Shown in pieces: positions 9,460 to 44,908 of a stretch of 64,000 nt of DNA. Where the stretch lies: the IMG/VR virus record IMGVR_UViG_3300027759_000001; one strand, given 5' to 3'. The first letter of the stretch is position 1. Each line of letters opens with the position of its first letter. Below the pieces are notes generated by a model. The model was not told where the DNA came from. It was given only the letters and a program-made list of their open reading frames with translations, and did not search any database. The position numbers and the translations under genes are program-made. Source of the stretch: a virus (lineage: Duplodnaviria > Caudoviricetes).

Positions 9460-10626
9460 ATGTCAGAGGAACACAAATTATCACCATTCTTTAAAAGAAG
9501 GATTGACCATCATAAGTTTGAAAAAATGATGAGGAAAGGTATTATCTATATGTATCAAGAATCAAATTCCCTTGAAGAATTTAAATTTAAGTTAGTTAAA
9601 GCAACATTAGAAAATTATATTTATTATAAATATAATATTGATATTGAAGATTTACCTCACAATGATGTGGATAATTTTATTGATTATATGGTTGATACTT
9701 ATGAACCTGTACTTAAGATGTATTATTATAATGAAAGAAAAAATAGTGGTAATATAAATGAAAATTATAGTCCAGCAGGAAAAGAAATTACACCAAACAA
9801 AATTGTTATACATAAATCTAACCCAAAGTTTAGAGATATAATATCAAATGAAGGGTTAAAAGTAAGGGCTGGAGAATGTTATAAAATATATGCAGGTTAT
9901 GGTGAAAAATGTATACCAGCAATCTTTGCAACTAACTCAATAAATAAAAGAGCATCGTTTGATTCCACATATGATGACGATGTTTGGGAAATTGATACTG
10001 AAATGATACCTGATGTTAAGTGGTACAAAGATAAACACTATGAATCAAGATCAAAACATATAGTAACATTTGAAAACATACCTGCAGATGCAATAACATT
10101 AAAACATGAAGGTACAGGTAAGGATTGGGGATTAATGGAATCAACTAATGATGATAAGTTAAGTAAAGAAACAATGGTGGGTACATTTCAAGACATTGTT
10201 GAGGAAACGTTGGAGGAAATTAGAAATATTTGTGAAGTACTTGATATAGATACTTTCCCTGGTTGGTTGTCGTTTGATGGTTGTGATGTTGTTGATACTA
10301 TAGATAAAATAACTATTGTAAATATAGAAAGAAAAAAAGGTATAAGTAGAATTCCTATGTTTGAAGTTGATGTAAATCTGACGCTTAATGGTATTTGGGG
10401 AGGAATTGATTATGATGATTTTATTTATACTATTTCGGATAGAATAATTGGTAAATGGAAGATACATTTAATTTTTAATATTAAAGAACAGGAGAATAGT
10501 AATAAACGAGAAATGTGGGAATACGCAAGGACACTAAAAAATGCAAGAACTCAGGGATCCAAATTAAGGTTCTCTAAGTCTGCAGTCAAAGCAAACCCTA
10601 TGAGGTTTAGACCATACAATAGATGA
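9460..10626 (+). CDS. Multidomain protein: RR-domain + ADP-ribosyltransferase-like domain + acidic domain
   Basis: FFKRRI N-domain; HKS......I..EGL...IFAT...WEID...IP.DAI middle domain bounded by NINE and GLME. Confidence 0.55.
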   Translation: MSEEHKLSPFFKRRIDHHKFEKMMRKGIIYMYQESNSLEEFKFKLVKATLENYIYYKYNIDIEDLPHNDVDNFIDYMVDTYEPVLKMYYYNERKNSGNINENYSPAGKEITPNKIVIHKSNPKFRDIISNEGLKVRAGECYKIYAGYGEKCIPAIFATNSINKRASFDSTYDDDVWEIDTEMIPDVKWYKDKHYESRSKHIVTFENIPADAITLKHEGTGKDWGLMESTNDDKLSKETMVGTFQDIVEETLEEIRNICEVLDIDTFPGWLSFDGCDVVDTIDKITIVNIERKKGISRIPMFEVDVNLTLNGIWGGIDYDDFIYTISDRIIGKWKIHLIFNIKEQENSNKREMWEYARTLKNARTQGSKLRFSKSAVKANPMRFRPYNR

Positions 10627-11213
10627 AAGAGTTAATTAGAAAAATATTGAAGGAAGAAAGAATGAACCCAATCAAAAAGTTCTTCTTTAATCATTGGGAT
10701 GAAATAAGATCCGAAGGGGAATACCCAACTATTGATTATAGTTTAATTGGTAAACTTGGATTTAGAAAAAAAGCAATAGAAATACATGATTACTATCTTG
10801 AATACATTGGTGGTGAAGGTATTGGTGAAGAAAAATTATTAGATTTTTTGTCAAATCAAACATTTGATTCTAGTGAACTAAATTTCAGAAGACACTGGGA
10901 TGATGAAGATTTAAAATTTACGTTTAAGTTAAGTAATGTTCGTATTACTAATGATAGAGATGGGGATAAAAACATTGATGCGGATGCGGACATACTTGAG
11001 GGTTATATTAATATGACAGAGTATAATGATATAGAGGACGAACATTATCAAAACAGGTATGATATTTCAAGGGGTAATAACGAAATAGATGATATGTCCT
11101 CTTACTTTGAGGTTCAGGATGAACTTAGGGCAATAATTCAATCATTTATTATTGATTTTGCAATAAAATATGGTACAGAAATTACCGAAGCTGAGGTTGA
11201 ATTATTAAAATAA
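10623..11213 (+). CDS. LIRKILKEE-leader hypothetical protein, paralog of 11438..11992
   Basis: MKELIRKILKEERMNPIKKFFFNHWDE. Confidence 0.75.
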   Translation: MKELIRKILKEERMNPIKKFFFNHWDEIRSEGEYPTIDYSLIGKLGFRKKAIEIHDYYLEYIGGEGIGEEKLLDFLSNQTFDSSELNFRRHWDDEDLKFTFKLSNVRITNDRDGDKNIDADADILEGYINMTEYNDIEDEHYQNRYDISRGNNEIDDMSSYFEVQDELRAIIQSFIIDFAIKYGTEITEAEVELLK

Positions 11214-11236
11214 TTTGTATATTTGTATTATTAATC

Positions 11237-11377
11237 ATGTCTAACAATATACAAACATACAAAAAGATGAAAACTATAGAGATCACAATTCAAGAAATCT
11301 GGGCGGCAACAAGACCTATTGTTCAGAAGAGCAAGAAATCTTACACTCGTAAGAGAAAACATAAGAATGTGGATTAA
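11237..11377 (+). CDS. Small basic protein (alternative start 11267), weak ArfA-like motif
   Basis: Manual translation ...RPIVQKSKKSYTRKRKHKNVD; TATATTTG at 11218-11225; hairpin/T-run downstream. Confidence 0.55.
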   Translation: MSNNIQTYKKMKTIEITIQEIWAATRPIVQKSKKSYTRKRKHKNVD

Positions 11378-11437
11378 TTCCATTGACCTGATAAACTACG
11401 TCTCAGGTTTTGTTTTTTTATGATATTTATAATTTAT

Positions 11438-12417: not shown

Positions 12418-13110
12418 ATGAAAGAACGTTTTAATCCGTTTATTATTAGGAGACTGAAACAAATTGATGATCTTGTTGATGAGGTTTACCATGAGGTAAC
12501 ACCTTGTGATTACGATGAAGATAAGTTTTATATGTACTTCAGGGAGATAACTAATTGGGTGGTAGAAAACTTTGTAAATAATAACAATTTAGGAGACGAT
12601 GATATTGCAATTGATTTACATCATTTCATAAGAGAAAGATATTTTGATGAGTTTTTAGATTACTTTGATAATGCACAATTAAGTTGTAATGAATCTTTAA
12701 ATGAATCTGAGGATTTAGGTGATTTTAATTATAATAATAACGAAGAAAAGAAATTGGATAAAAAAAAAGTAACTCCTTCAGATTTAAAAAAGATTGAATT
12801 TATTGCCGATTATATTGAGATGGTAAGTGGTGAATATTTAAATAGGTCAAATTATAAACCTTGTTTTGTTTCAGTTCAAGCGGGACATAATAAATTTTAT
12901 ATAGTTGTAATTGTTACTGATAAAAAATATACTTTGGAAGGATACGAAAAATTCATTAATGAAAAATTACATAAAACATTCAAAGGGATGGACATTTATG
13001 TTTTATTAATTGATAATAAATATGACGATGGTGATAGTATTCCTAAAAGTTGTGATGATTATTTTAACCATATACCTAAACTTCCTAATACAATTACTAT
13101 AGAATTTTAA
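12418..13110 (+). CDS. RR-domain protein with second domain after NESLNES linker
   Basis: IIRRL...TPCDY...; internal LNE motifs. Confidence 0.7.
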   Translation: MKERFNPFIIRRLKQIDDLVDEVYHEVTPCDYDEDKFYMYFREITNWVVENFVNNNNLGDDDIAIDLHHFIRERYFDEFLDYFDNAQLSCNESLNESEDLGDFNYNNNEEKKLDKKKVTPSDLKKIEFIADYIEMVSGEYLNRSNYKPCFVSVQAGHNKFYIVVIVTDKKYTLEGYEKFINEKLHKTFKGMDIYVLLIDNKYDDGDSIPKSCDDYFNHIPKLPNTITIEF

Positions 13111-15275: not shown

Positions 15276-15845
15276 ATGAAAAATTTAATCTTTTCTTTAT
15301 TCGTGAGTTTATTTACACTCATGAGTTTTTCACAAACACCTATTGATGTTTATGTTATTAATCCTAACGGATGTCCTTATAGTATTACAAGTACATGGAC
15401 AAGTCCTTTTGGTGGTGGTAACTCAACTATAATTTCAGTAGATAGTTTAATAAATCAAGATGTATGGCATTTGGAAGTTGCAGATTCTAGCAATCAAACA
15501 ATGATAACGGTATGTACAGTTCCAGCACCACCTTGTAATTGCCCTATTGAATGTATGGGACCAATTACTGTTACCCCAAACATGGCAATCACATTAATAC
15601 TTTGTAATACTATAAATGTTGACGAATTAAATGTTTTAACAATTGAAAACCCAATGGAGGGAGTAGTTGTATTCCCACTTTCTGAACCAACTAATTTTTA
15701 TTTAATTAACTCAGAAGGAAAAATTATTAAGTGGTTAAAAAACACCACATCAGTGTCTTTTAATTCGGAAGAGTTACCTTCAGGTTTTTACCATTTAATT
15801 TTGGAAACTCAAACAACTAAAAGAATATATAAACTATTAAAATAA
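15276..15845 (+). CDS. Signal-peptide protein with T9SS type-A-like C-terminal sorting domain
   Basis: MKNLIFSLFVSLFTLMSFSQ signal; LINSEGK...LPSGFYHLIL...KLLK terminus. Confidence 0.6.
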   Translation: MKNLIFSLFVSLFTLMSFSQTPIDVYVINPNGCPYSITSTWTSPFGGGNSTIISVDSLINQDVWHLEVADSSNQTMITVCTVPAPPCNCPIECMGPITVTPNMAITLILCNTINVDELNVLTIENPMEGVVVFPLSEPTNFYLINSEGKIIKWLKNTTSVSFNSEELPSGFYHLILETQTTKRIYKLLK

Positions 15846-17080: not shown

Positions 17081-17101
17081 GTATATTATCAACCAATGAT
17101 A

Positions 17102-17108
17102 TATTTAT
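17102..17108 (+). promoter_or_regulatory. Representative TATTTAT motif (putative phage late promoter), recurring before dozens of genes on both strands
   Basis: 4-6 nt before ATG at 4960, 17113, 19993, 25925, 35464, 38742, 40040, 40383, 40581, 41768, 42463, 54497, 61456. Confidence 0.6.
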
Positions 17109-17112
17109 TACT

Positions 17113-17958
17113 ATGAACTTACAAGAGAACATACAAAGAATTAGATCAATGATGGGTCTCAGGGAAGAAACTGAGATAAAAGATATTGATATGGATATTT
17201 CTTACAAATACGATCCAAAAGTAATTGAAATTCAAAAAGAATTAACCAATAAAGGATATTATATTGGAAAATTTGGTGATGATAAAGATGGTATTGACGG
17301 AATATATGGTCCAATTACAAAGGCGGCACATGAATCTTACAAAAAAGAAATACCACCAGAAGAGTTTGAATCAAAAAAAACTGAAATGGCTAAAGAGTAT
17401 GTAGATGAAGTGGATGTTAGTGATTTAAAAGAATTTAAATTTCATAAAATACCTGGAGGAACAAATAATTGGAGATCGGCTCAAATAACCGCAGATGTAT
17501 TACCTTCAGTAATTAAAAAATATGGTATAAAAAATATTATCAGAATGAGTGGTGATGACGAAAAACATAAAAGTGATCACCCTAAAACATCTTTAGATAC
17601 TGAACAAAAAATATGTGAAGAAAATGATTGTACTTACCATTTTATTAATGCTCATAGTGGATATAAATTAGGTAAAGGTTATACTAAATCAATACAAAAA
17701 ATTAATGACATTTTAAATCAAGGTAATACATTAATTCACTGTGCTCACGGTGCTGATAGAACTGGAGGAATGGTTGGTGCTTATCTTAAAAATAATGGTT
17801 ATATGACAGATAAAGATGAATTATGGAAATATACCACACAATTTAATAGTTGGCAAAGCTTAATTAATAATAATAATTTTTTTGGAAGTGGTTACGACAA
17901 ATATGCCGACGGATTTTACCCTATCTCAGAATTAAAAAATTCAAAATGGGTTAAATAA
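17113..17958 (+). CDS. MNLQE leader + peptidoglycan-binding domain + CX5R (tyrosine/dual-specificity) phosphatase
   Basis: IQKEL...GY...DGIDGIYGPITKAA; WRSAQ; IHCAHGADRTG P-loop. Confidence 0.8.
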   Translation: MNLQENIQRIRSMMGLREETEIKDIDMDISYKYDPKVIEIQKELTNKGYYIGKFGDDKDGIDGIYGPITKAAHESYKKEIPPEEFESKKTEMAKEYVDEVDVSDLKEFKFHKIPGGTNNWRSAQITADVLPSVIKKYGIKNIIRMSGDDEKHKSDHPKTSLDTEQKICEENDCTYHFINAHSGYKLGKGYTKSIQKINDILNQGNTLIHCAHGADRTGGMVGAYLKNNGYMTDKDELWKYTTQFNSWQSLINNNNFFGSGYDKYADGFYPISELKNSKWVK

Positions 17959-17968
17959 AAGATATAAT

Positions 17969-18451
17969 ATGACCTTACAAGAATCCATAAGAAAAGTATT
18001 AAGGGAAGAATCAATACAAGATAGTTTGTTTGACATGATTAAAACCGATGGATTTAAAAAGGCAGCAAAAGCCGTTGGTGGTGGTAAAAGATTAATGAAG
18101 ATATTAAATATTGATGATGAAGATCTTGATGAATTTATATACCAATATCTAACGGATAATCTACATCCTGATTATAATTGGGGACCCAAATTACACAATT
18201 TATATAAAGAAGATGTAAAAAAATATGGAATTTATGAATTTTCAATAAACGATAAGTATCGTTATGCGTATCTTGGTGAATGGGATGGTTATGATTACTT
18301 ATACACTTTAGTAATTAGTGAATGGGCGAATAACGAATTAACATCATTATTTGGTGATAAATGGATTCCTGTATTTAAAAGATGGTTTGAGTATAACTCA
18401 GGTCTTGAAGTTAGGAAAATAGATTTAAAAAATAGATATTTACATTTATGA
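17969..18451 (+). CDS. MNLQE-type leader hypothetical protein
   Basis: MTLQESIRKVLREESIQDSL..MIKTDG shared with next gene. Confidence 0.75.
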   Translation: MTLQESIRKVLREESIQDSLFDMIKTDGFKKAAKAVGGGKRLMKILNIDDEDLDEFIYQYLTDNLHPDYNWGPKLHNLYKEDVKKYGIYEFSINDKYRYAYLGEWDGYDYLYTLVISEWANNELTSLFGDKWIPVFKRWFEYNSGLEVRKIDLKNRYLHL

Positions 18452-19218
18452 ACCTACAAGAAACCATAAGAAAAGTATTATCTGAAGAAACATTAAAGGA
18501 TAGTTTAACTGATCTAATTAAGACTGATGGTATTGAACGTGCATCAAAAACGGTTGGTGGTTTAACAAGGTTGGCAAAAATATTAGAACTTGATCTTGAT
18601 GACGTAGATACTCAAGAAATGTTGGTTAAAAATTTTATTTACCATACTAAAATTGATCAGATTGATGTGTCATTTATTGAGGTTAGACCATCTGCTAGTG
18701 GAGGTAAGATTCTTACCATTAATTTAAAAACTGATGATACTGCGTCAAATGTAACAAGTTGGTATGTGCATGAGATATGTAATTATTTTAATGGGAGACA
18801 GGACTCACCAGAAGTGAATAAAAAATTATTTCCTTTTAAAGTAAAACCAGCATGGCATCCTGTTTTTGCTTTAAGTGGATGTAAAATATTTTTAGATGCT
18901 GAGATAGTTGATGATGAAGAAGATGATGAGGACTTAATGGAATCTAAACAGAAAGGACCAAGAGAAATACCAAATGAATTAAAACGAAGATCACAACGTT
19001 TAGATGATCTAATTGTAAAGGTAATAAAAGATATAGAAATATGTGAGTATAATACACCTGATGAGTTTATTTATGTGGTTGTTGACGAACTTATATGGGA
19101 GTTAAGAGATGACTACCATGGAGACCTTAATAAGTTAGATAAATTTGATGTGACACAATATGTGTATGACTTCAAATACCGTGAGTTAGAAGATTATTTT
19201 CTTGAGAGTTGTCAATAA
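18448..19218 (+). CDS. MNLQE-leader protein with C-terminal RR-domain after DLME linker
   Basis: MNLQETIRKVLSEE; ELKRRSQRLDDLI...ICEY. Confidence 0.75.
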   Translation: MNLQETIRKVLSEETLKDSLTDLIKTDGIERASKTVGGLTRLAKILELDLDDVDTQEMLVKNFIYHTKIDQIDVSFIEVRPSASGGKILTINLKTDDTASNVTSWYVHEICNYFNGRQDSPEVNKKLFPFKVKPAWHPVFALSGCKIFLDAEIVDDEEDDEDLMESKQKGPREIPNELKRRSQRLDDLIVKVIKDIEICEYNTPDEFIYVVVDELIWELRDDYHGDLNKLDKFDVTQYVYDFKYRELEDYFLESCQ

Positions 19219-19314
19219 AGAATATACGATATTAAATAAAAATAATTAAAATTATGGATGTTTTGAATATACTTATTTTATGTAGATAATACATAAAAAA
19301 AAGACAATAAAAAA

Positions 19315-20703: not shown

Positions 20704-21063
20704 ATGAACCTACAGGAGAACATACAAAGGATTAGATCAATGATGAATCTGAATGAGTCAGATAAAAATAAGATTTGGTTATTAAGAAGACTGGAAACCC
20801 AAGATATAAAAGATTACCTAAATGAACAAATTGATAGTTTAACCGATCAAATTAGTCCTTGTGGTTATAGTACATCTGAAGATTATAAAGATGTAATTTT
20901 TGAAGTTGCAAGTTCTAATTTTATTAATCATTTTAGTGATGAACTTTATGTTAAACATGAAATGTCAGAAATTGAAGAAATTATATGGGACTTATTAACT
21001 AAAAAATATGGTAATTACCTTATAAATCAATTTGACGGTAGAATCTGTGATGATGAGTATTAA
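20704..21063 (+). CDS. MNLQE leader + RR-domain
   Basis: MNLQENIQRIRSMMNLNES...WLLRRL...SPCGY. Confidence 0.8.
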   Translation: MNLQENIQRIRSMMNLNESDKNKIWLLRRLETQDIKDYLNEQIDSLTDQISPCGYSTSEDYKDVIFEVASSNFINHFSDELYVKHEMSEIEEIIWDLLTKKYGNYLINQFDGRICDDEY

Positions 21064-21064: not shown

Positions 21065-21385
21065 ATGAACCTACAGGAACACATAAGAAAAGTATTAAAG
21101 GAAAACAATAATGGATCAAAATTCTTTCATAGAAGAATTGATTTAGATGAGGTTAAATGGTTACTTTCAATTAATGCAGAACAAATATTTCATGAAACAA
21201 AAAGTTTTAAACAATTTAAATATGAAGTAACTTTAAGGGCAGTGGAATCAATTATGTGGAATGAACATGGAATCGGGTGGGAAGATTTACCTGAACAAGA
21301 AGAAATAGATTTTGTTACAAAAGTATCAGATATGTTTGAGTACATGATTATAGATTTATATAAACATATTCGTGGTAAGTTATAG
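21065..21385 (+). CDS. MNLQE leader + RR-domain (start revised)
   Basis: MNLQEHIRKVLKE...FFHRRID. Confidence 0.75.
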   Translation: MNLQEHIRKVLKENNNGSKFFHRRIDLDEVKWLLSINAEQIFHETKSFKQFKYEVTLRAVESIMWNEHGIGWEDLPEQEEIDFVTKVSDMFEYMIIDLYKHIRGKL

Positions 21386-26708: not shown

Positions 26709-27014
26709 ATGAATCACAAGTTAAAAAAAATTGTTAGGGGGGTATTAAGGGAAGAAATGAAACCCCCAAATTATATCAAGAGAAGATATATTTGTATGGA
26801 TAAATATATAACAAAATTAGAAAATGGGGAAGAAACCCTCCCTATAAGAATAAGACGATTAGATTGGACTCATTACCAAATAATAGTGACCGCTTTTATA
26901 AGATCTAATTGTGACGATGGTGATGGGTATTATGATCCAATTATACATTCAAAGATTATGGATACATTTGGTGATAGATTATATGAATGGTATAACGATA
27001 ATATTGATATATGA
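26709..27014 (+). CDS. KKIVRGVLREE leader + RR-domain variant
   Basis: MNHKLKKIVRGVLREE...YIKRRY. Confidence 0.7.
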   Translation: MNHKLKKIVRGVLREEMKPPNYIKRRYICMDKYITKLENGEETLPIRIRRLDWTHYQIIVTAFIRSNCDDGDGYYDPIIHSKIMDTFGDRLYEWYNDNIDI

Positions 27015-27355
27015 ATAACAAGTTAAAAAAAATTATTAGGGGAGTATTAATGGAATCTTTAACTGAGTCAGAACCTCTTTGGTATAGATTACCTAATAAT
27101 ATACTTAATGAATTGGGGATTGAATTATATAACCCTGATGATGAGGCTTATGTTGTTGAGATACATTTTGATACTAAGAACGTATTGATTCAATTATATA
27201 CAGTAGAATTTAACGAATTGGTTCCGTATTGGAATTCTAATCAAATACCTGGTAATATAAAAGATAATTTTGATATACCTTTAAGTGAAATCCCAAAAAG
27301 TTTAAAAAGTCTTATCTTTAGAAGATTAAACCCTAGTTATCACAAATACCTATGA
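27011..27355 (+). CDS. KKIIRGVLME-leader hypothetical protein
   Basis: 5' end nearly identical in DNA to 26709. Confidence 0.7.
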   Translation: MNNKLKKIIRGVLMESLTESEPLWYRLPNNILNELGIELYNPDDEAYVVEIHFDTKNVLIQLYTVEFNELVPYWNSNQIPGNIKDNFDIPLSEIPKSLKSLIFRRLNPSYHKYL

Positions 27356-27633
27356 AGATCATTATAACGGAATCACAATATAATAGAATATGGTTACTAC
27401 GAAGATATAAATTAGTCAGGGATAGTTTTGATGAAATTCTTATGTATATTAAAAATCCTTGTGTGTATGATTCTTTTGAACATTACGAAAGAACATTTGT
27501 GGATCTTATGTTGGATGAACTTCACCCCGAATATTATTTGATTGATAATTTTGATTATGAAGGGATGATCTCCGAACTAAAGGATATGTTCTATGTTGAG
27601 TTAACCGAATTATACTACGAACGTAATTGTTAA
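27352..27633 (+). CDS. MKIIITE leader + RR-domain
   Basis: MKIIITESQYNRIWLLRRY...NPCVY. Confidence 0.8.
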   Translation: MKIIITESQYNRIWLLRRYKLVRDSFDEILMYIKNPCVYDSFEHYERTFVDLMLDELHPEYYLIDNFDYEGMISELKDMFYVELTELYYERNC

Positions 27634-27967: not shown

Positions 27968-28363
27968 ATGAAAATCATTATAACAGAACGACAGTCCAAA
28001 CTATTAAGACGTATTATTAGTGAAGAATCGGATTACGAAATGGATGAAATAATTTATGATATTAAAACAACAGATTGTGAAGGATCTAGTCTTGGTAATA
28101 TGTCTTCAATGGGCGTTGATGAGGATGAGGATGGAAACATTGTTGTATTTATCAGATATTGTAAAGGTGATGACGAGGAGTTAGAACATCTTAAAATGAA
28201 AGCAAGAATGGAAATTGCATCAAATTATGGTTTAGATAACCTTGAAGATGATGATCAAACATCAGAATATACAAGTTACGGCAAACCAAGTAAGTATGAC
28301 CCACAATATTCACAGGACCCACGTGAACGTTACGACCATGGAGGTTCACAATCAGGTCATTAA
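27968..28363 (+). CDS. MKIIITE-leader acidic protein
   Basis: MKIIITERQSKLLRRIISEE. Confidence 0.75.
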   Translation: MKIIITERQSKLLRRIISEESDYEMDEIIYDIKTTDCEGSSLGNMSSMGVDEDEDGNIVVFIRYCKGDDEELEHLKMKARMEIASNYGLDNLEDDDQTSEYTSYGKPSKYDPQYSQDPRERYDHGGSQSGH

Positions 28364-28677: not shown

Positions 28678-29058
28678 ATGAAAATCATTATAACAGAACA
28701 TCAGTCCAAACGATTAAAACGTGTTGTTAATGAAAACTTTAAAGAAATCTCATGGGAGGATATTTGGTTTAAGTTAAGAAGATTGTCTCAAAGTTTTCAG
28801 TATCCTGATGACGTATATAGTTTTGGTGGTCTTGATTTTATTGTTTCGGAAGACGGGGAAAGTTTGGACTTAATGGACATCTATAGAGATCCTTATATGT
28901 GGAGAGATGAGTACGATGAAGGTGCCGAGGTTTTAGAAAAGTATTCTAATAAACTTAAAAACTTTGTTGATGAGTTTAATTTAAAATATGACTACCCATT
29001 TACCCTTATGTTTAAAATGGGACCAAAATTTAATATGAAATTTTATACTGAAGATTAA
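28678..29058 (+). CDS. MKIIITE-leader hypothetical protein
   Basis: MKIIITEHQSKRLKRVVNE (hybrid of two leader types). Confidence 0.75.
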   Translation: MKIIITEHQSKRLKRVVNENFKEISWEDIWFKLRRLSQSFQYPDDVYSFGGLDFIVSEDGESLDLMDIYRDPYMWRDEYDEGAEVLEKYSNKLKNFVDEFNLKYDYPFTLMFKMGPKFNMKFYTED

Positions 29059-31284: not shown

Positions 31285-31620
31285 ATGAAAATCATTATAA
31301 CGGAAGATCAGAGTAATAAACTTATTAGTTTCCAAAGAAGGTTAACAGATATTACGTATGAAGCATCATATATGATTGATGATGCTGATGAGTTTTATGG
31401 GAGCGTTGATTTTTGTCGTTATTTCCCCACGTTAAAAAAATATGTGGACGACGTGGTTTATGAAATTATCAATCAATATGAACATCCTATTTATGATATT
31501 GATGAGACAGAAAATTTTATTTATAACCATGTTGGTTATGAAAACTTTGTTAATATGTTAATGGATATGTATGGTGAGAAGATTGAAAACTTTTATAATA
31601 TGAAAACAAAAGATTGTTAA
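31285..31620 (+). CDS. MKIIITE leader + RR-domain (start revised)
   Basis: MKIIITEDQ...FQRRL...FCRYF. Confidence 0.8.
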   Translation: MKIIITEDQSNKLISFQRRLTDITYEASYMIDDADEFYGSVDFCRYFPTLKKYVDDVVYEIINQYEHPIYDIDETENFIYNHVGYENFVNMLMDMYGEKIENFYNMKTKDC

Positions 31621-31622: not shown

Positions 31623-31904
31623 ATGGCAATAAATGATATCCCCCAATTTTTTAAGAGACGTTTTAATCAAAAAGAATTTGATAAATATATTGTGAGTTCA
31701 ATGTTTGGGTGGATTGATGAATCAACAAATTACAGGGAATTTGAGGTCAATGTTATTAATGAATCCATTGTTGAATATTTTTGGAATACTTTTGAGTTTG
31801 ATTTTTTTGATGAATCCGATATTGATGATGCATATCAGTTTGAGTCATTTGTTACAAACAAATATGAACAAAAACTTAGAGATTTCTATAATAGAAGCAA
31901 ATAA
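31623..31904 (+). CDS. RR-domain protein without leader
   Basis: FFKRRF...LRDFY. Confidence 0.7.
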   Translation: MAINDIPQFFKRRFNQKEFDKYIVSSMFGWIDESTNYREFEVNVINESIVEYFWNTFEFDFFDESDIDDAYQFESFVTNKYEQKLRDFYNRSK

Positions 31905-34537: not shown

Positions 34538-34554
34538 CTAAAAATTAAAACTTT

Positions 34555-34581
34555 AAACCCTACCTCATCGGTGGGGTTTTT
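34555..34581 (+). terminator. Repeated terminator, copy 3
   Basis: Identical to 29866..29892. Confidence 0.85.
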
Positions 34582-34644
34582 TATTTTATATTGTTTTGTA
34601 ATAATCAATAACATTGACATATTTATTAATAAACAAAAAATATT

Positions 34645-35061: not shown

Positions 35062-35082
35062 AAATAAATAAAATAATATATT

Positions 35083-35391
35083 ATGGCAAGAATTGTAAGA
35101 TTAACAGAAAGAGATTTAACAAGATTGGTTAAACGAGTTATTAGAGAACAATACGAAGATGATTATACCGCAAGTGGATTTGATTCTATGGGAGATGCAG
35201 CACATTCAGCTTTAAAGTCTAAAGGTCATAGTCATAGAGGTAAAGACGATGAAGGTGAATTCTACATTGTATTTGACGGTGAGAAATTCTATGAAGATGA
35301 TTTTGAAATTGCTGATCACAATGATATGGGAAAAATTCCAAGAGTTGAGGACGGTAAATTAATTATTGCAAATCCTGCGTGGGGATCATAA
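35083..35391 (+). CDS. RLTE-leader acidic protein
   Basis: MARIVRLTERDLTRLVKRVIRE; first 36 nt identical to 34645. Confidence 0.8.
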   Translation: MARIVRLTERDLTRLVKRVIREQYEDDYTASGFDSMGDAAHSALKSKGHSHRGKDDEGEFYIVFDGEKFYEDDFEIADHNDMGKIPRVEDGKLIIANPAWGS

Positions 35392-35412
35392 AAAAATAAT
35401 GAATGGTATTTA

Positions 35413-35441
35413 GACCCCTTAATTAGTTGAGGGGTTTTTTT
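35413..35441 (+). terminator. Rho-independent terminator
   Basis: ACCCCTT/GAGGGGT stem plus T-run. Confidence 0.7.
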
Positions 35442-35463: not shown

Positions 35464-35787
35464 ATGAAAATTATTATAACTGAAAGTCAAAAAGAATCAT
35501 TGGATTATTATCAATTATCTAACTGTATTAAGAGAAGGATAGATCTTGATGGGATTGACGATATTGTTGATGAGGCCATGGAAGAATTTGTTTCACTTCG
35601 TGATACTACTGAAGGTTTTATGGAGATGGTAATTAATTACACATATGACCGAGTTGATGAAGATTATGGTGTGGAAAAATGTTGGGGAGATCAATATTGG
35701 GATGAATTCTCCGCACCAATTAAACGATTTATATCCTCAAGATATGAGGCAAAACTGAAAGAATATTTTGAAAATCATTATAACTGA
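35464..35787 (+). CDS. MKIIITE leader + RR-domain (start revised)
   Basis: MKIIITESQ...IKRRID. Confidence 0.8.
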   Translation: MKIIITESQKESLDYYQLSNCIKRRIDLDGIDDIVDEAMEEFVSLRDTTEGFMEMVINYTYDRVDEDYGVEKCWGDQYWDEFSAPIKRFISSRYEAKLKEYFENHYN

Positions 35788-36106
35788 ATCACAATTTGTT
35801 GATCTTTTCTTTAAACGTAGGTTTGGTCGTATTGACCAACTTGTTGATGAAAAGATGCGTTACTATCCCCCTTGTGATTATACATATGATCCGTACTACG
35901 CTTTTTATGATTACTTTGGTGATGTTCGTAATGCAGTCATATACGAGATGATTGAAAAAGATATAAATTTACCTTGGTCAGAAGAAAATATGGTTAATAT
36001 TGATGAATTATCTGAAACTATGAATGAATGGATGTATGAAATATTCTTTGATAAAGTTAGAGAATATTATGATAAGGTTTTAGAGGATGAAGATTGTGAT
36101 GAGTAA
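35768..36106 (+). CDS. MKIIITE leader + RR-domain
   Basis: MKIIITESQFVDLFFKRRF...PPCDY. Confidence 0.8.
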   Translation: MKIIITESQFVDLFFKRRFGRIDQLVDEKMRYYPPCDYTYDPYYAFYDYFGDVRNAVIYEMIEKDINLPWSEENMVNIDELSETMNEWMYEIFFDKVREYYDKVLEDEDCDE

Positions 36107-39382: not shown

Positions 39383-39688
39383 ATGAAAATAATAATAACA
39401 GAAGACCAAGATAATCAAATTCGTTCATTTGTACGACGACTTAGTATTGCGGATAAAATTATTTCCGAGTTGGATCCTAAAGACATTTGTAGAATATGGT
39501 CAAACACAGAAAAAGACTCGTTATATTTTGCCGATGACGTTATGTTGGGAATTGTATGGGAAATTAATCTAACACTTGGGATTAAAGATTCATATAAAAA
39601 TAAAGATCTGTATAAATTTTTTGAGGATTATGGTTATTACGATAAACTAAAAAACTTTTTTCATAAATCATTTGAGTCATGCGAATAA
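39383..39688 (+). CDS. MKIIITE leader + RR-domain
   Basis: MKIIITEDQ...FVRRL...PKDIC. Confidence 0.8.
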   Translation: MKIIITEDQDNQIRSFVRRLSIADKIISELDPKDICRIWSNTEKDSLYFADDVMLGIVWEINLTLGIKDSYKNKDLYKFFEDYGYYDKLKNFFHKSFESCE

Positions 39689-40026
39689 TCATAACTGAAT
39701 CTCAAAGTAAAATTCTATGGTTACGTAGGCGATTGAATGACCCTGAAATTAATGAATTATTAAAAGATATTGTTATTGAGGGTTTTGATTATACCGATCC
39801 TTGTAACTACGAAACTTATAATAGTTTTGAAACTAACATTGTAAATGAATCCGCAATAACATTTATTAATTCATATAGCGAACTTAGTGGTGAAGAACAA
39901 TTTATTTCAGATAACGAACTTGAGAAGTTTGTTGTTAAGGTAATTGTTAGTAAACATCGTCCCCTAATTGAACGAGAATATAGGGATCGTTATTGTGATG
40001 AAGATGATGATGAATCGGATTATTAA
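39679..40026 (+). CDS. MKIIITE-type leader + RR-domain
   Basis: MRIIITESQSKILWLRRRL...DPCNY. Confidence 0.8.
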   Translation: MRIIITESQSKILWLRRRLNDPEINELLKDIVIEGFDYTDPCNYETYNSFETNIVNESAITFINSYSELSGEEQFISDNELEKFVVKVIVSKHRPLIEREYRDRYCDEDDDESDY

Positions 40027-40039: not shown

Positions 40040-40369
40040 ATGAAAATCATTATCACCGAAAACCAAAACTATGTTCTTAGACGATTACAACAATTTATTG
40101 AAATTGTTGAGGATCATATTGAAGGGTATGAACTAAATGAAGATGGGTCATGGTGGTGCCGTCATTTTAATGCGGATACTTTTTTTGAAAATCTAATGAA
40201 TAATTCAATTGAAGAATTTGAAAGTAATAATTGGAATTTCTTCCACGATACTTCCGAAAAAGGTGGTTCGGATATGGACATCAGTATATTAAATAAAATT
40301 ATTGAACAAAACTACGGTAATTATATTAGAAATCTTTTTGTTCGTAAGTGTAATAAATCTCGTTGGTAA
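40040..40369 (+). CDS. MKIIITE leader + RR-domain
   Basis: MKIIITENQNYVLRRL. Confidence 0.8.
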   Translation: MKIIITENQNYVLRRLQQFIEIVEDHIEGYELNEDGSWWCRHFNADTFFENLMNNSIEEFESNNWNFFHDTSEKGGSDMDISILNKIIEQNYGNYIRNLFVRKCNKSRW

Positions 40370-40580: not shown

Positions 40581-41264
40581 ATGAAAAAAATTGTAAAACT
40601 TACGGAATCTGAATTAAAAAAAGTTCTCAAAAAAATCATAAATGAAAGTTTACTACTTGAGTCATCTGCTGATTCATTAAATAGAGGTCAATTAGAATCA
40701 ACTTATCGTAAATATAATGATTTGGGTTCAGATGGGACTTTTAATGAAATCTTTAAAAATGAAAGAGAACAAGGATTAACACCATTTACTGAATTTGTCA
40801 ATGGATGTGCAACTAAGGTATCATTAGCAATTAACTCCGCAGGTGGAACTCTTAAACCGAGTTTTATCGTTACCAATGGACCATTTAAAGGTAAAAATGT
40901 TAACACATCCGCAACCGGTCTTAAAAATGAATTATTGAAAAAATGGGGAACTCCTGACGTTAAAATTGATAAGGTAACAAGTTTAGAGGAAGTACAACAG
41001 AAAATTGGACCAGGAAGAAGTGGTGTTTTTATATGTACCCCATGTGGTTTTGGGAGTGGAGCTAGTGGTCATGCAACAATATGGAGTTGGTGGAAGAATG
41101 GTAAAAAAGGTGGTCCGTTAGACGATAGTAGTTATCCTGAAGAAAATGGTGGTACAATATATTTTTGGGGAGTTGGTGGAACAAATGAGGAAGTAGCAAC
41201 AAAGTGTGGATATAATTCTTGGAGTGAATACGAAAAGGCAAATTTTAAATGTAAAACAAATTAA
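40581..41264 (+). CDS. Leader + Tae4-like (NlpC/P60 superfamily) peptidoglycan amidase
   Basis: NGCATKVSLAIN, WGTPD, SGVFI...ASGHATIW, GTIYFW match Tae4 Cys/His motifs. Confidence 0.75.
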   Translation: MKKIVKLTESELKKVLKKIINESLLLESSADSLNRGQLESTYRKYNDLGSDGTFNEIFKNEREQGLTPFTEFVNGCATKVSLAINSAGGTLKPSFIVTNGPFKGKNVNTSATGLKNELLKKWGTPDVKIDKVTSLEEVQQKIGPGRSGVFICTPCGFGSGASGHATIWSWWKNGKKGGPLDDSSYPEENGGTIYFWGVGGTNEEVATKCGYNSWSEYEKANFKCKTN

Positions 41265-41698: not shown

Positions 41699-41718
41699 TA
41701 TTTAAAAATAATAATACG

Positions 41719-41744
41719 ACCCCACCTCATTAGTGGGGTTTTTT
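41719..41744 (+). terminator. Repeated terminator, variant copy
   Basis: ACCCCACCTCATTAGTGGGGTTTTTT. Confidence 0.8.
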
Positions 41745-41767
41745 GTTTTATATGGTATTTATAATAT

Positions 41768-42076
41768 ATGAAAATCATAATAACAGAAAATCAAAATAAA
41801 TTAACAAGACGATACTTCCAAATAAAAAATGAGGTTCATAATCGTATGGATGGATCCAATCCTTGTTATTATAGGGATTACCATGATTTTGATAGGTACA
41901 AAAGAGATGTTTTAAAGGCGGCAATTGATGAGGTTACAGATGAGTCAGATCTGGAAATCGACCCAAGATCATGGATAAATTTTAGAAATGAACTTTCTTA
42001 TATGTTAAATGATGAAATGAAGGAGTTTTACGATAATGAGATTAACAAAAGGTGTCCAGAATATTTTGGAGAGTAA
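41768..42076 (+). CDS. MKIIITE leader + RR-domain
   Basis: MKIIITENQNKLTRRY...NPCYY. Confidence 0.8.
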   Translation: MKIIITENQNKLTRRYFQIKNEVHNRMDGSNPCYYRDYHDFDRYKRDVLKAAIDEVTDESDLEIDPRSWINFRNELSYMLNDEMKEFYDNEINKRCPEYFGE

Positions 42077-42078
42077 AT

Positions 42079-42390
42079 ATGGTAATAATTCTAACAGAAT
42101 CACAGTATAATTACATAAAAAGGAGGTATCTACACATACTTCCAATCTTTGAACGAGAACTTGAAGATCAGGTTCCAGCATGGTATAACAATAAATTTGG
42201 AAAAAACGAAGGGTTTGAACGTTATTACGACACCGTAAAAGATTCGGTTGTAGAATTTATTATGTACGATATCCCAAATTTTTATGATCTTGATGAGGAA
42301 AATGAGGTTGAAATCAGTAAAAAACTATCAAAAGAGTTTGATTTAATCTTTTTTGATGAGACTAAAAGATATTATGAAGAAAACAGGTAA
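42079..42390 (+). CDS. IILTE leader + RR-domain (start revised)
   Basis: MVIILTESQYNYIKRRY. Confidence 0.75.
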   Translation: MVIILTESQYNYIKRRYLHILPIFERELEDQVPAWYNNKFGKNEGFERYYDTVKDSVVEFIMYDIPNFYDLDEENEVEISKKLSKEFDLIFFDETKRYYEENR

Positions 42391-42462
42391 AATACAGGAG
42401 TAATGATTGTCCTCGTTCAAAAGACGGGGGTAATTTTTGTCCTTATGTTATATTTATCTTAT

Positions 42463-42714
42463 ATGAAGATTGTTATAACAGAATCTCAACATAAATTTAT
42501 TAGAAGATACCAAGAACTCAAAGATTGGGTTAGGTCTGACTATAACTATTTATTGGATCAGGGTAAATCACCATATGATGCAAGAGAGATTACAATAGAT
42601 CATTCTGCAATGACGTACTTGGATGACCCTGACACACAACTTGAGTGGACAGATAAAAATTTGAATATGTTAAGACGATTCATTGAGAATAATTTTGAGG
42701 ATTTAATTAGTTAA
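42463..42714 (+). CDS. MKIVITE leader + RR-domain (start revised)
   Basis: MKIVITESQHKFIRRY; TATTTAT 5 nt upstream. Confidence 0.8.
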   Translation: MKIVITESQHKFIRRYQELKDWVRSDYNYLLDQGKSPYDAREITIDHSAMTYLDDPDTQLEWTDKNLNMLRRFIENNFEDLIS

Positions 42715-42715
42715 T

Positions 42716-43000
42716 ATGAAAATAATAATAACAGAAAACCAAAAAGAAAAGTTAATGATCATAAGGAGAATACCTGAGATTAAAAGTTTAATACAAAACT
42801 TATACTCTTATCAGTATCCTTGTGACTTTGATTCATTGGGCGAATTTATGAGAGCAATTGATGTTGATTTGGCTGAGTCTATTTATCTTCTTGATTGGCA
42901 CGAATCTGTTGAATATGAAACCCTATGGGATATGTCTATGGAGTTTTTTCATAGTGACATAGTAGAACACTATAACCATAACTGCAAAGAAGAATATTAA
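42716..43000 (+). CDS. MKIIITE leader + RR-domain
   Basis: MKIIITENQ...IIRRI...YPCDF. Confidence 0.8.
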   Translation: MKIIITENQKEKLMIIRRIPEIKSLIQNLYSYQYPCDFDSLGEFMRAIDVDLAESIYLLDWHESVEYETLWDMSMEFFHSDIVEHYNHNCKEEY

Positions 43001-43001
43001 T

Positions 43002-43352
43002 ATGAAAATAATAATAACAGAAACACAGAACAAAACTCTTCTTAAAAGATTAAGAAGGATACAGGAAGTTAGAGATACTATAGAGTTTCAAATGGAAGTT
43101 CAAGACCCTTGTAATTTTGAAGATGGTGATGAGTATGCCGATTTTTGTATTGGTGAAGGGATTAGTTTCTTTTATGGTGATGAAAACTATGAGAGAGAGG
43201 ATGATACCTTTGCCGATGAGGATGAGAATGAAGATAGTGGTAGAGAAGAGATTGAAAAATTAATGTCTGAGGAGTACTACGGTGAGTTAGTTTCATTGTG
43301 GGAAGAATATAGTGAAAATTGTGACGATGATGATGACGATTTTGAATATTAA
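43002..43352 (+). CDS. MKIIITE leader + RR-domain
   Basis: MKIIITETQ...LRRI...DPCNF. Confidence 0.8.
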   Translation: MKIIITETQNKTLLKRLRRIQEVRDTIEFQMEVQDPCNFEDGDEYADFCIGEGISFFYGDENYEREDDTFADEDENEDSGREEIEKLMSEEYYGELVSLWEEYSENCDDDDDDFEY

Positions 43353-43362
43353 ATAAGTTAAG

Positions 43363-43998
43363 ATGAAAATAATATTAACTGAAAACCAAATTGAGTTTAT
43401 ACGTAGGTATAAAAAAATCAAAGATCTTGTTGATGAAGGAATTGATGTGTTAAGTCAAGAAACAGATATATGTGATTATGATTTTTTTGGGTTTTTAAAT
43501 GAAATTTGTTGGCAAGTAAGTGATAAAATGGAACATTTAAATTTACCTACCAATACTGTTGGAATGATTGAAAACGTTCACAAGTGGGTTAAGGATAATT
43601 TTGATACTTACATATTAGAAAAATTTGAAATAATCATGTACGACTCTAATTGTAATGAAAGATTTGATGATGTGGATGACGAAGAATATAACCTACAGGA
43701 GTCAGATGACGATGACGATGATAAATATTATTCTACATTAAATAGTTCACTTATTAGGAGACATAATGTTATTATGGAAGAGATGGATCATCATATAACA
43801 AATAATATTTCTTGTGATGAATATCCGGACGACGTTGATGAATTTAAAGATTATATACTTGAAAAAGTCACAGATGAAATGATGTTTAACCATAATGTAA
43901 ATAAGTGGGAATGGCATGATGTCTATTTATCATTAGAGAATATAATTGGTAAACAGATAAAAAAGACTTTTAAATCTTGGATTAGAAAACATTGTTAA
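43363..43998 (+). CDS. MKIILTE leader + two RR-domains joined by YNLQES linker
   Basis: FIRRY...ICDY; LIRRH...SCDEY. Confidence 0.8.
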   Translation: MKIILTENQIEFIRRYKKIKDLVDEGIDVLSQETDICDYDFFGFLNEICWQVSDKMEHLNLPTNTVGMIENVHKWVKDNFDTYILEKFEIIMYDSNCNERFDDVDDEEYNLQESDDDDDDKYYSTLNSSLIRRHNVIMEEMDHHITNNISCDEYPDDVDEFKDYILEKVTDEMMFNHNVNKWEWHDVYLSLENIIGKQIKKTFKSWIRKHC

Positions 43999-43999
43999 G

Positions 44000-44908
44000 A
44001 TGAAAGTAATAATAACAGAAAATCAAAATCGCCTATTACGCAGAGTTCCAGAAATTGAACATTTAATTGGTCCTATGATGGATTTAGTGTATGAATATAT
44101 GAAAAATGGTAATCCGTCCCCACTTAATATGTCCTACTACGATACGTTTATAGATTTTACTACATTAAACATTACAAAAGAAATAGTAAATCGTACAAAT
44201 TTTCGGGGGGATGACAAAATAGAATTAGAAACACAAATACAACGGTTTATAGAAACCGAATATATGGATATTATTAGAGAATATTTTTATTCTCGTATGG
44301 TTAAAAATATTAATGAATCTGATCACGAAATAAAATTTAAACGAAGATACCAAGAAATTGAGGATGGTATTTCGGATTTTATCTTAACCCATACGTTAAC
44401 TGTTATGGACACCTTTGGTAATTTTTTAACTGAAATTTGTTGGAATGTTGCAAGTCAGGTTGTTGGTAAAATGAATATACCTGAAGATGATTATGTTATG
44501 TATAGAAATCAATTGATACGTTTCATTAAAAATAATTTCTACGAGGAATTAAAAGAGTTTTGGGATAGAAATTATTATTGGAGGGACAATAAAAACATCA
44601 ATGAATCTTATGATAAAAGAATGTTACAAAGACGATACCAATACATTAGTGAGTTTATTGATAGAGCTCTTTCACGTTATGATGTTTGTTTATATACTGA
44701 TGTAATTGATTTTGTGGATCGTGTGTTGGATTACACCGCTGATAATTTATATGAATCCTTATTTAAATTAGAATGGGACGACAATCATAATGAATATTAT
44801 CAAGATATATATGATTTGATTTCTGAAAACTTTGTAGATAGAATCCATGAATTCTATGAGGACAATAAACATTTTTGTATAGATGAGGACGGTAATTGGA
44901 TTCATTAG
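44000..44908 (+). CDS. MKVIITE leader + three RR-domains joined by KNINES linkers
   Basis: LLRRV; KNINES..FKRRY; KNINES..LQRRY. Confidence 0.8.
   Translation: MKVIITENQNRLLRRVPEIEHLIGPMMDLVYEYMKNGNPSPLNMSYYDTFIDFTTLNITKEIVNRTNFRGDDKIELETQIQRFIETEYMDIIREYFYSRMVKNINESDHEIKFKRRYQEIEDGISDFILTHTLTVMDTFGNFLTEICWNVASQVVGKMNIPEDDYVMYRNQLIRFIKNNFYEELKEFWDRNYYWRDNKNINESYDKRMLQRRYQYISEFIDRALSRYDVCLYTDVIDFVDRVLDYTADNLYESLFKLEWDDNHNEYYQDIYDLISENFVDRIHEFYEDNKHFCIDEDGNWIH

Follow-up and report, generated by a model that had tools for sequence, protein, structure and literature searches.

The 64,000-nucleotide stretch of DNA analysed here (the window, in what follows) comes from a jumbo phage, uncultured and T4-like, that infects lake bacteria and has a genome of about 290 kb; its host probably belongs to the Bacteroidota. 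A small acidic protein occurs in this phage in about 25 widely differing copies, which form a previously undescribed family. On balance, we regard it as probable that these are internal proteins targeted to the capsid, trimmed by a protease and ejected together with the DNA, in what would be an expanded analogue of Ip1-3 of phage T4.

Members of the Family

A profile HMM, seeded with 10 single-domain ORFs and iterated over all six-frame ORFs of the window, converged on 24 domains with i-E values ranging from 2.4e-6 to 1.6e-24; the 21 ORFs that contain them all lie on the + strand. The converged profile recovers 22 of the 24 copies listed in a preliminary description of this DNA; as for the other two, 9460 is probably a divergent member, the 25th of the family, and 26709 is unsupported. 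Two copies absent from that list were found, namely 28678 (2.7e-15) and 27968 (leader and RR helix only, 2.4e-6). Copies and associated features in the window are:

9460..9780, + strand: probable divergent copy, N-terminus of the 388-aa ORF 9460-10626
12418..12720, + strand: N-terminal copy in ORF 12418-13110, 230 aa (HMM 2e-16)
18928..19215, + strand: C-terminal copy in ORF 18448-19218, after 'LMES' (HMM 2.8e-15)
20704..21063, + strand: MNLQE-type leader, then 'LNES'; both Cys (HMM 7.2e-16, alignment A1)
21065..21385, + strand: MNLQE-type leader; neither Cys (HMM 9.5e-17)
26709..27014, + strand: claimed copy, unsupported; different leader (MNHKLKKIVRGVLREE)
27352..27633, + strand: single domain, MKIIITESQ leader (HMM 1.1e-21)
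27968..28363, + strand: fusion of leader and RR helix only (first 32 aa) with an acidic tail of unrelated sequence (HMM 2.4e-6, profile positions 1-32)
28678..29058, + strand: MKIIITEHQ leader, no Cys pair (HMM 2.7e-15)
31285..31620, + strand: single domain, MKIIITEDQ leader (HMM 1e-20)
31623..31904, + strand: no canonical leader, no Cys pair (HMM 9.4e-14)
35464..35787, + strand: copy after a terminator (35412-35437) and a TATTTAT motif (HMM 1.5e-18)
35768..36106, + strand: TTG start, overlaps the preceding gene (HMM 1.6e-24)
39383-39688, 39679-40026 and 40040-40369, + strand: three adjoining single-domain copies (HMM 3.2e-19, 4.8e-23 and 2.3e-22)
41718..41767, + strand: terminator hairpin and TATTTAT 5 nt before the ATG; the main array begins here
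41768..43352, + strand: five single-domain copies at 41768, 42079, 42463, 42716 and 43002 (HMM 7.3e-24, 4.7e-19, 2e-16, 6.7e-24 and 5.4e-23)
42405-42462: second terminator and TATTTAT, inside the main array
43363..43998, + strand: two-domain protein (HMM 8.2e-22 and 9.8e-16)
44000..44908, + strand: three-domain protein, 302 aa (HMM 4.6e-21, 5.5e-21 and 6.5e-20)

The copy at 9460 has neither the MKIIITE leader nor either Cys, and TATTTAT lies 6 nt upstream of its ATG; its comparison with alignment A3 (hhalign 68%, E 4.8e-5, 81 columns) is consistent with membership. The protein at 26709 is not supported as a member, with an hhalign value of 11%, only 21 C-terminal columns aligned and an HMM E of 0.2. 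The 12418 copy opens with a short MKERFNPF start, contains both Cys, is followed by 'LNES' and has an orthologue in L063 at 97.8% aa; within ORF 18448, which opens with a different leader (MNLQE...), the HMM domain spans 18973-19200. The 43363 protein is ~80% aa identical to P0012, a two-domain representative.

The region 41768-44908, previously described as an unbroken tandem array, is indeed tightly packed, with 7 genes and 10 domains separated by gaps of at most 72 nt, the sole larger gap containing a terminator and a TATTTAT motif. The acidic and aromatic composition already noted for the copies holds as well: D+E amounts to 21% vs 14% in other ORFs and Y+F+W to 15% vs 10.7%, every copy being net negative (charge -4 to -30, pI 4.05-5.8).

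The Helical Domain and Its Cysteine Pair

The domain, of ~90 aa, is a helical bundle (AlphaFold model of 42716, pLDDT 86). A single scaffold, as had been proposed, is common to the copies modelled: helical bundles with a similar helix pattern are obtained for the single domain and for each repeat of the 302-aa ORF, whose three repeats are joined by low-pLDDT linkers (104-107 and 194-204). In the 42716 model, residues 1-6 are coil and the first helix runs from residue 7, the mean pLDDT of the first ten residues being 66 vs 88-93 in the bundle.

Of 82 sequences, 65 have both Cys36 and Cys90 and 15 have neither (Fisher p 2.5e-14), the 2 exceptions being alignment artefacts. This covariation fits a disulfide, which is probable between the two residues and would be in keeping with storage of the protein in an extracellular particle.

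Scans of seven copies against Pfam and PHROG gave no family membership; a match to the Rep3_C winged helix (PF21205), limited to 29 residues of one copy, scored 18.9 bits, below the cutoff of 21.1, and the model is all-alpha. Foldseek against the PDB retrieved no structural relative of the domain, tblastn against cultured phages gave no match to the family, and no IPI*, IPII or IPIII chain occurs among the PDB Foldseek and VIA-wide matches; similarly, none of the matches listed links the domain by fold or sequence to a known DNA mimic or inhibitor, and the highest VIA Z, 6.3, is within the noise for helical bundles. At 50% identity the family falls into 643 metagenomic clusters, and every one of its nearest neighbours in the Atlas is a viral cluster.

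The N-Terminal Leader and the Linker Sites

In a family with a mean column identity of 21%, the leader is the best-conserved part; MKIIITE-S-Q and the RR pair are nearly invariant, with M1, K2, I4, I5, T6, E7, Q9, R17 and R18 each found in at least 90% of the 82 sequences. Codons vary synonymously at the conserved leader positions, and the constraint therefore acts on the protein. The leader ends in (I/L)-x-E, the site of the T4-type prohead protease, followed by a small residue; at the putative MKIIITE/S cut site, I5 occurs in 75, E7 in 81 and S8 in 47 of the 82 sequences. In forms with two to four domains the (I/L)-x-E site is also present in the flexible linkers: the 44000 protein carries ..NINES.. 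at residues 103-107 and 199-203, both in low-pLDDT linkers, and [ILVM]-x-E occurs within the 16 residues before RR in 90 of 97 internal repeats vs 42% of background windows (p 8e-22), P1' being Ser in 60% of the internal-repeat sites.

The same or similar leaders are borne by unrelated cargo, namely a Tae4-like amidase at 40581, ORFs 41267, 51906 and 52469, and leader-only fusions such as 27968; in the reverse case, some copies of the domain carry another leader, MNLQE. In that the leader resembles the head-loading signal of T4, the proteins are probably injected with the DNA; by inspection, it shows no sequence similarity to the T4 CTS (MKTYQEFIAE), only M-K and the terminal E being common to the two.

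Two points weigh against a trimmed, injected protein: phi-T/N-E-S may in part serve to cap the N-terminus of a helix, and [ILVM]-x-E is common anyway in these Glu-rich proteins.

The N-terminus has to be weighed also under a different explanation, which we consider unlikely, namely that the copies are cytoplasmic phage proteins, never packaged and acting late in the cell, whose N-terminus is a structural or interaction element (for example, a hydrophobic staple that also caps the N-terminal end of helix 1, or a peptide that docks onto a partner from phage or host). Conserved positions do reach Q9 and R17-R18, past the putative cut, so that the N-terminus is not purely a removable tag, and phi-[TN]-E-S-Q fits the helix N-cap pattern as generally known; yet residues 1-6 are modelled as coil, with a confidence below that of the bundle, and the motif of the internal repeats lies 3-4 residues ahead of the helix, in low-pLDDT linkers, and so does not form an N-cap consistently. 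The background frequency of 42% indicates that [ILVM]-x-E is frequent by composition, as this explanation would have it, but the leader also occurs on unrelated domains and the domain with other leaders, and a covarying Cys pair would be unexpected in a reducing cytoplasm.

Prohead Protease and Putative Promoter Motif

A T4-type prohead protease (Peptidase_S77, PF03420) is encoded by five of the ten family-carrying contigs (G001, G002, G004, G005 and G009), a co-occurrence measured on related contigs and not on the window's own genome; it was found in four of the first five contigs checked, including both of those at least 98% complete, and in one of five further fragments, the five contigs without it being 9-64% complete. 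Genes for the T4-type MCP (Gp23) and portal (Portal_T4) are also found in family-carrying contigs, and the MCP of G001 has HLINE/A upstream of a conserved VRR block aligning to mature T4 gp23*.

In the window, 29 ORFs on the + strand have the motif (A/G)TATTTAT upstream of the ATG, at a distance of 4-6 or 12-17 nt, and the genes that open the family arrays are among them. The same TATTTAT precedes the prohead protease gene in four related contigs and, in G001, a scaffold-like ORF and ORFs of more than 1000 aa, the DNA polymerase ORF not being among those so preceded; judging from the genes which follow it, the motif is a putative late promoter. The earlier proposal that the copies are delivered with the DNA has good indirect support in the T4-type prohead protease, in the (I/L)-x-E end of the leader and in the late-type motif common to head genes.

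Evolution of the Repertoire

Copy number varies across related phages (6, 13, at least 4, at least 12 and at least 8), their repertoires differ strongly, and gene order changes between close relatives at the terminator/promoter joints; the leader codons, being conserved, may add to recombination homology. The copies are as divergent as the preliminary description had stated, the best paralogue of each being only 22-34% identical, whereas most copies have an orthologue-like relative elsewhere at 55-96% identity; the 27352 copy, for instance, has an orthologue in L096 at 72% aa with a dN/dS of 0.39. The diversifying selection suggested in the same description was not borne out, since dN/dS in orthologue pairs, although above that of many neighbours, is 0.26-0.57 and thus well below 1. 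Conserved orthologues and distant paralogues together indicate a diversity that is old and maintained, and not demonstrably fast or positively selected.

These observations bear on a further possibility, quite improbable in our judgement, that the copies are accessory or 'filler' proteins of the prohead core, targeted to the scaffold, cut and then expelled by DNA entry or left as inert packing, with no role in the next host cell. The evidence from leader, protease and promoter is the same for such proteins as for injected ones. Acidic scaffold peptides of T4 are expelled by the incoming DNA, and the strong negative charge of the family would favour such expulsion; a filler, however, would have no need of a well-folded domain stapled by a disulfide, or of 25 paralogues that have diverged deeply and are each maintained as a separate orthologous lineage under purifying selection. 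The strong differences in repertoire between related phages fit host-facing functions better.

Finally, the position of small acidic tandem genes next to the Tae4-like amidase (Pfam 2.5e-8) and other wall hydrolases could recall immunity or antidote proteins for neighbouring peptidoglycan-degrading effectors (Tae4-like amidase, SLT and GDSL enzymes), as in polymorphic-toxin arrays, but this is highly improbable and already disfavoured: the copies have no signal peptide and could not meet a periplasm-acting amidase, far outnumber the hydrolases, which themselves bear related leaders, match no Pfam immunity family, lie in a phage accessory region and have only viral clusters as nearest Atlas neighbours.

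Proposed Pathway

Returning to capsid-targeted, injected proteins, the family would be the largest cargo class of a capsid-loading system, whose packaging, cleavage, ejection and targets we infer as follows. Each gene would be transcribed late from its TATTTAT promoter; the MKIIITE leader would direct the protein to the prohead scaffolding core, and Peptidase_S77 would cut after Glu7 (P3 = Ile, P1' = Ser) and, in polyproteins, at the same phi-x-E/S sites in the linkers between two to four domains. Acidic helical bundles of ~85 aa, most of them stapled by one disulfide, would be freed, remain in the head and be ejected along with the DNA, after which each old, distinct paralogue would most likely bind a different host protein, as T4 Ip1, Ip2 and Ip3 do with GmrSD. 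A role as anti-defence binders, decoys or nucleic-acid mimics, already put forward in the preliminary description, is suggested by the acidity of the copies and by the precedent of the T4 Ips. More tentatively, and with some doubt, T4-like jumbo phages of Bacteroidota may be seen as encoding a combinatorial library, in which one disulfide-stapled acidic scaffold, partly produced as polyproteins that the head protease would cut into single binders, is packed into the capsid and co-injected, and each ancient paralogue neutralises a different defence protein of the host.

Comparison with Known Systems

In T4, head targeting requires no more of IPIII than its first 10 aa, and residues 8 and 10 act as determinants of processing (PMC9026906); the Ips are a diverse set having only the CTS in common (PMC3012670), and Ip1-3 each inhibit one distinct GmrSD nuclease (PMC12373910). 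As with Ip1/Ip2/Ip3 and gp21, a short N-terminal leader ending in (I/L)-x-E goes with an encoded gp21-type protease (Peptidase_S77); the mature portions, which are small and vary greatly, have mainly the leader in common, the genes look non-essential, vary in number and lie in plastic genome regions, and the expected role would be that of injected inhibitors of host defence. The leader, however, is unrelated in sequence and has 7 residues (MKIIITE) vs the 10 of T4, and polyprotein forms with putative internal cleavage sites are present; T4 possesses three Ips, with at least ten reported among related phages (PMC12373910), but here one homologous fold accounts for about 25 domains per genome. 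The probable host phylum (Bacteroidota) is also different, and the family is known here from sequence alone. The conserved Cys pair is a further difference, and so is the acidity of the proteins: the Ips of T4 have been described as basic (PMC9026906), and cargo that is strongly acidic is less expected in a DNA-filled head.

The inner-body or ejection families of phiKZ-like phages (phiKZ, 201phi2-1, SPN3US) are multi-copy head-internal paralogues cut after Glu by a gp21-related protease, with multi-site propeptides (PMC9026906, PMC5694885); multiple paralogues and (putative) cuts after Glu by such a protease are thus common to both, but those proteins are larger and cut at different motifs, carriers of the present family have T4-type MCP, portal and protease genes, and the Pfam and PHROG scans of seven copies revealed no Pfam or sequence relation to the internal head families of phiKZ/SPN3US. 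Ocr, ArdA and T4 Arn, which disarm nucleases and are encoded by phages or mobile elements, are likewise small and strongly acidic, but their synthesis follows the entry of the DNA and they are not packaged; the aromatic richness and variable surface of the family suggest protein binders as much as DNA mimicry. As in the PeSL mobile promoter/terminator cassettes of T4-type genomes (PMC2839356), the arrays open with a terminator hairpin and a promoter motif; unlike in PeSL, this motif is here TATTTAT, a putative late promoter placed 4-6 nt upstream of the ATG.

Conclusions

Were the proteins unpackaged, they would still make up a large undescribed virus-only family, whose conserved N-terminus and covarying Cys pair need explaining. 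Should the leader be a capsid address, sequence alone would be enough to list the proteins injected by a large clade of freshwater jumbo phages, so far uncultured; polyproteins whose linkers hold protease sites would carry the capsid-targeting principle of T4 over to multi-cargo precursors, and the leader, being short, could be used to tag proteins for packaging when such phages are engineered. If the library reading is true, this would be the largest known single-fold repertoire of pre-made injected anti-defence proteins, readable via the leader. To our knowledge, few anti-defence proteins are known for the defence systems of Bacteroidota, and the family, if these readings are true, would be a ready catalogue of candidate inhibitors of them.

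The domain family and its fold

A profile was built from ten single-domain ORFs and iterated against all six-frame ORFs of the window; it converged after one round and returned 24 domains in 21 ORFs, on the + strand in every case, with full-domain i-E values of 1e-13 to 1.6e-24; a regular expression for the N-terminus, MKIIITE[SN]Q, finds 13 + strand starts. The preliminary description had counted about 24 copies, 22 of which are recovered by the profile; the copy at 9460 probably belongs to the family as a divergent member (hhalign 68%, E 4.8e-5), that at 26709 is not demonstrable as a member, and 28678 and the leader-only ORF 27968 are extra copies that had been overlooked. The tandem array placed at 41768-44908 is indeed compact, comprising seven genes and ten domains, and the composition rich in D, E, Y and F is borne out by a pI of 4.05-5.8 and by contents of D+E (21% vs 14%) and Y+F+W (15% vs 10.7%) exceeding those of the window's other ORFs.

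The AlphaFold2 model of a single domain, built on an alignment of 82 sequences, is confident (pLDDT 86, pTM 0.73) and all-alpha, with helices at residues 7-17, 19-30, 41-56, 60-64 and 67-90; the 302-aa product of ORF 44000 is modelled as three such bundles, whose mutual orientation is undefined (pTM 0.37) and whose linkers are of low confidence. The two models thus yield no unrelated folds, in agreement with the single scaffold initially proposed. Among the 82 sequences, whose average column identity is 21%, M1, K2, I4, I5, T6, E7, Q9, R17 and R18 are nearly invariant. Two cysteines, Cys36 in the 'PC.Y' motif and Cys90 towards the C-terminus, occur together in 65 sequences and are jointly missing from 15 (Fisher p 2.5e-14), the two apparent exceptions being one truncated and one misaligned row; such covariation, with either both residues or neither, is expected of a disulfide bond.

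No match to the DNA of the array was found in 50,697 deposited phage genomes, nor did tblastn with the three-domain protein find anything in deposited phage genomes. Seven copies scanned against Pfam and PHROG produced only chance matches below threshold (Rep3_C, Cytochrom_C550 and others), Pfam did not match ten members carrying extra sequence outside the domain, and Foldseek retrieved nothing from the PDB at E <= 1e-3. BFVD yielded a single good match, an uncharacterised, member-like protein of an 'uncultured Caudovirales phage' (TM 0.66), and also a weak resemblance (TM ~0.5) to the helical C-domain of T4 RNA ligase 2. The best Z of the VIA-wide search (6.3) is below the chance level expected for helical bundles; a cyanophage pre-ejectosome chain (VIA Z 5.8) was given no weight, its Z lying within the same noise. 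When 1.84 billion cluster representatives were scanned in full, 643 clusters matched at E <= 1e-3; the 155 proteins retrieved from them have between one and four domains each, and the nearest ESM Atlas clusters are all viral.

Genome setting and relatives

The window has a G+C content of 29-33% and no tRNA genes, and nearly all of its ORFs lie on the + strand. The few with recognisable families are typical of the accessory region of a large phage: an endonuclease VII, a pyrimidine-dimer glycosylase, a T5orf172 protein, a Lar-like restriction-alleviation protein, a Tae4-like amidase, several wall hydrolases resembling endolysins, and a protein that has a CHU_C type IX secretion domain.

Features of the window discussed in the text (the arrow marks the putative cut)
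6099-7595: fusion of a GDSL esterase, a PG-binding domain and an SLT lytic transglycosylase
40581-41264: ORF with a Tae4-like (T6SS amidase effector 4) domain (Pfam 2.5e-8), leader MKKIVKLTE↓S
54497-56713 and 15276-15845: 738-aa protein with a C-terminal CHU_C domain (2.2e-15) and a signal-peptide-like start

The PHROG matches of the fusion ORF include 'internal virion protein with endolysin domain', and the Tae4-like ORF may encode a wall-degrading enzyme carried in the virion. The CHU_C domain points to a Bacteroidota host, and the 738-aa protein is a possible phage-encoded T9SS substrate.

The close relatives of the window are metagenomic contigs only; locus L063 is 90-98% identical to window 6.7-20.4 kb, and identity to locus L096 reaches 98.7%. 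The largest non-coding gap (23960-25173) lies between divergently oriented genes and is in part 95% identical to L096. A genome size of about 290 kb is implied by the CheckV sizes of related fragments. In contig G002 (IMGVR_UViG_3300032296_003307; 269 kb, rated 100% complete) there are two portals, two Peptidase_S77 proteases and two major capsid proteins, at 26.9-36 kb and 230-238 kb; these doubled T4-type head genes come either from a real duplication or from an assembly in which two phages were joined, as a chimera or by concatenation.

The leader and the prohead protease

The best-supported reading of the family is that of capsid-targeted internal proteins. The leader MKIIITE↓S is compatible with the (L/I)-x-E site that T4-type prohead proteases recognise. 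Relatives were gathered with a degenerate DNA pattern built on this leader, the whole alignment having no stretch conserved enough; 120 viral contigs were retrieved, and 50 of the loci examined carry the domain. Of the five contigs checked first, four encode Peptidase_S77, the T4 gp21-type prohead protease, and these four include the two whose completeness is 98% or more; a sixth contig (G009) encodes it as well; the family-carrying contigs without it are fragments, 9-64% complete. Genes for a T4-type major capsid protein and portal also occur in family-carrying contigs, and in the capsid protein of the related contig G001 the sequence ...HLINE↓ASSTS... stands shortly upstream of a conserved VRR block aligning with residues 28-61 of mature T4 gp23*; this putative site, with the exact cut inferred, fits a conserved protease specificity.

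Comparable sites recur between domains. Both low-pLDDT linkers of the ORF 44000 model contain I-N-E motifs, 3-4 residues ahead of the next helix, and [ILVM]-x-E occurs within the 16 residues before the RR pair in 90 of 97 internal repeats, as against 42% of equal in-domain windows (p 8e-22), with I or L at P3 in 74 and Ser at P1' in 54 of the 90. Given this enrichment and the placement in linkers, the multi-domain forms look like polyproteins with putative cleavable joints.

In the single-domain model residues 1-6 are coil, with lower confidence over the first ten residues; related leaders are found on unrelated proteins of the window (the Tae4-like amidase at 40581, ORFs 41267, 51906 and 52469, and several with RLTE-type leaders), ORF 27968 consists of the leader and RR helix only, attached to a different tail, and some family copies bear an MNLQE-type leader instead. 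The Ile and Thr codons of the leader vary synonymously among copies, and therefore the constraint acts on the protein. Conservation of the leader as a nucleotide-level signal for translation initiation on leaderless mRNAs was rejected because synonymous sites vary, and because the leader is retained in operon-internal copies and the motif in internal repeats.

Two further N-terminal patterns were observed. Five neighbouring ORFs in 32167-35391 begin with M(x)RI(I/V)RLTE(R/S)DL(T/S)RLV(K/R)RVI.E, a longer leader with two phi-x-E motifs, which also heads ORFs 40581, 41267, 45921, 52469 and 60327 and whose cargo is unrelated; M..(I/L).EELN.(I/M)KYL..YK(R/K)G.(V/I)ISEQ is common to ORFs 45053, 47838 and 49493, which share no related sequence thereafter.

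A putative late promoter

The motif (A/G)TATTTAT lies 4-6 nt or 12-17 nt upstream of the ATG of 29 + strand ORFs of the window (for example at 12406, 35452, 40028, 40569, 41756 and 54486), including the first genes of family arrays; intrinsic terminators at 35412, 41718 and 42405 lie ahead of these genes too. The window has 15 terminator-like sites where 3.6 would be expected; sigma-70-like sites are not enriched there. The motif resembles the T4 late promoter, TATAAATA. It precedes the prohead protease gene in four related contigs (G001, G002, G004 and G005); in G001 (295 kb) it stands ahead of 77 of the 346 ORFs, its distances to the start peaking sharply at 4-6 nt, and these ORFs include a scaffold-like one, three of more than 1,300 aa and family genes, and do not include the DNA polymerase ORF. 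This placement suggests that the family is co-expressed with head proteins. If the motif acts in the manner of that promoter, transcription would begin at or beside the start codon and would give leaderless late mRNAs, consistent with the absence of Shine-Dalgarno sequences.

Evolution of the repertoire

The two near-complete genomes carry 6 and 13 family copies, and fragments at least 4, 12 and 8; the repertoires of distant relatives are only 20-50% identical to that of the window. The best paralogue of any window copy is only 22-34% identical to it, and 19 of 23 copies have an orthologue-like representative elsewhere at 55-96% identity, in which two- and three-domain architectures are preserved. 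The diversifying selection originally invoked finds no support in gene-wide dN/dS, which is 0.26-0.57 for orthologue pairs of the family, without sign of positive selection (neighbours 0.01-0.76, many below 0.2). Close relatives differ through gain, loss and reordering of cassettes; orthologues of 27352 and 31285 are adjacent in L096, and that of 42716 has different neighbours in a further related locus, L001. Stretches with the same genes reordered, or with cassettes inserted or lost, are seen between window 17089-20405 and L063 9330-13679, and between window 27352/31285 and L096 659-1288, in relatives 90-98% identical; the break points are gene boundaries bearing terminator, promoter and leader modules. 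The picture drawn from these sequences is that of an old, maintained and modular repertoire, under relaxed but purifying selection.

Proposed role in the virion

The capsid-targeted reading has explicit precedents. For T4 IPIII the first ten residues are enough to bring about encapsidation, and determinants of processing lie at positions 8 and 10 (PMC9026906); the T-even internal proteins form a diverse set with only the targeting sequence in common (PMC3012670), and Ip1, Ip2 and Ip3 inhibit one GmrSD nuclease each, a different one in every case (PMC12373910). According to a different reading, which we hold to be unlikely, the family is cytoplasmic and never packaged, and its N-terminus is structural. 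That the family is instead an inert filler of the prohead core seems to us decidedly improbable. A role as immunity proteins for the neighbouring wall hydrolases is hardly credible and was rejected, since the copies have no signal peptide and the adjacent hydrolases themselves bear leaders. DNA mimicry, one form of the nucleic-acid mimicry first suggested, would fit the acidity of the family; fold searches found no structural link to a known mimic.

The capsid-targeting principle is already known; no description was found, in databases or literature, of this protein family, of an expansion to about 25 domains of a single fold in one genome and to 643 clusters overall, of polyprotein forms bearing putative protease sites, of the cysteine pair or of the probable Bacteroidota host. 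As capsid-targeted internal proteins, the family members would be synthesized late and docked by their leader to the scaffolding core; the S77 protease would trim them after Glu7 and at the linker sites, and the trimmed proteins would be stored in the head and then ejected with the DNA, each paralogue possibly binding a different host target, by analogy with T4 Ip1-Ip3.
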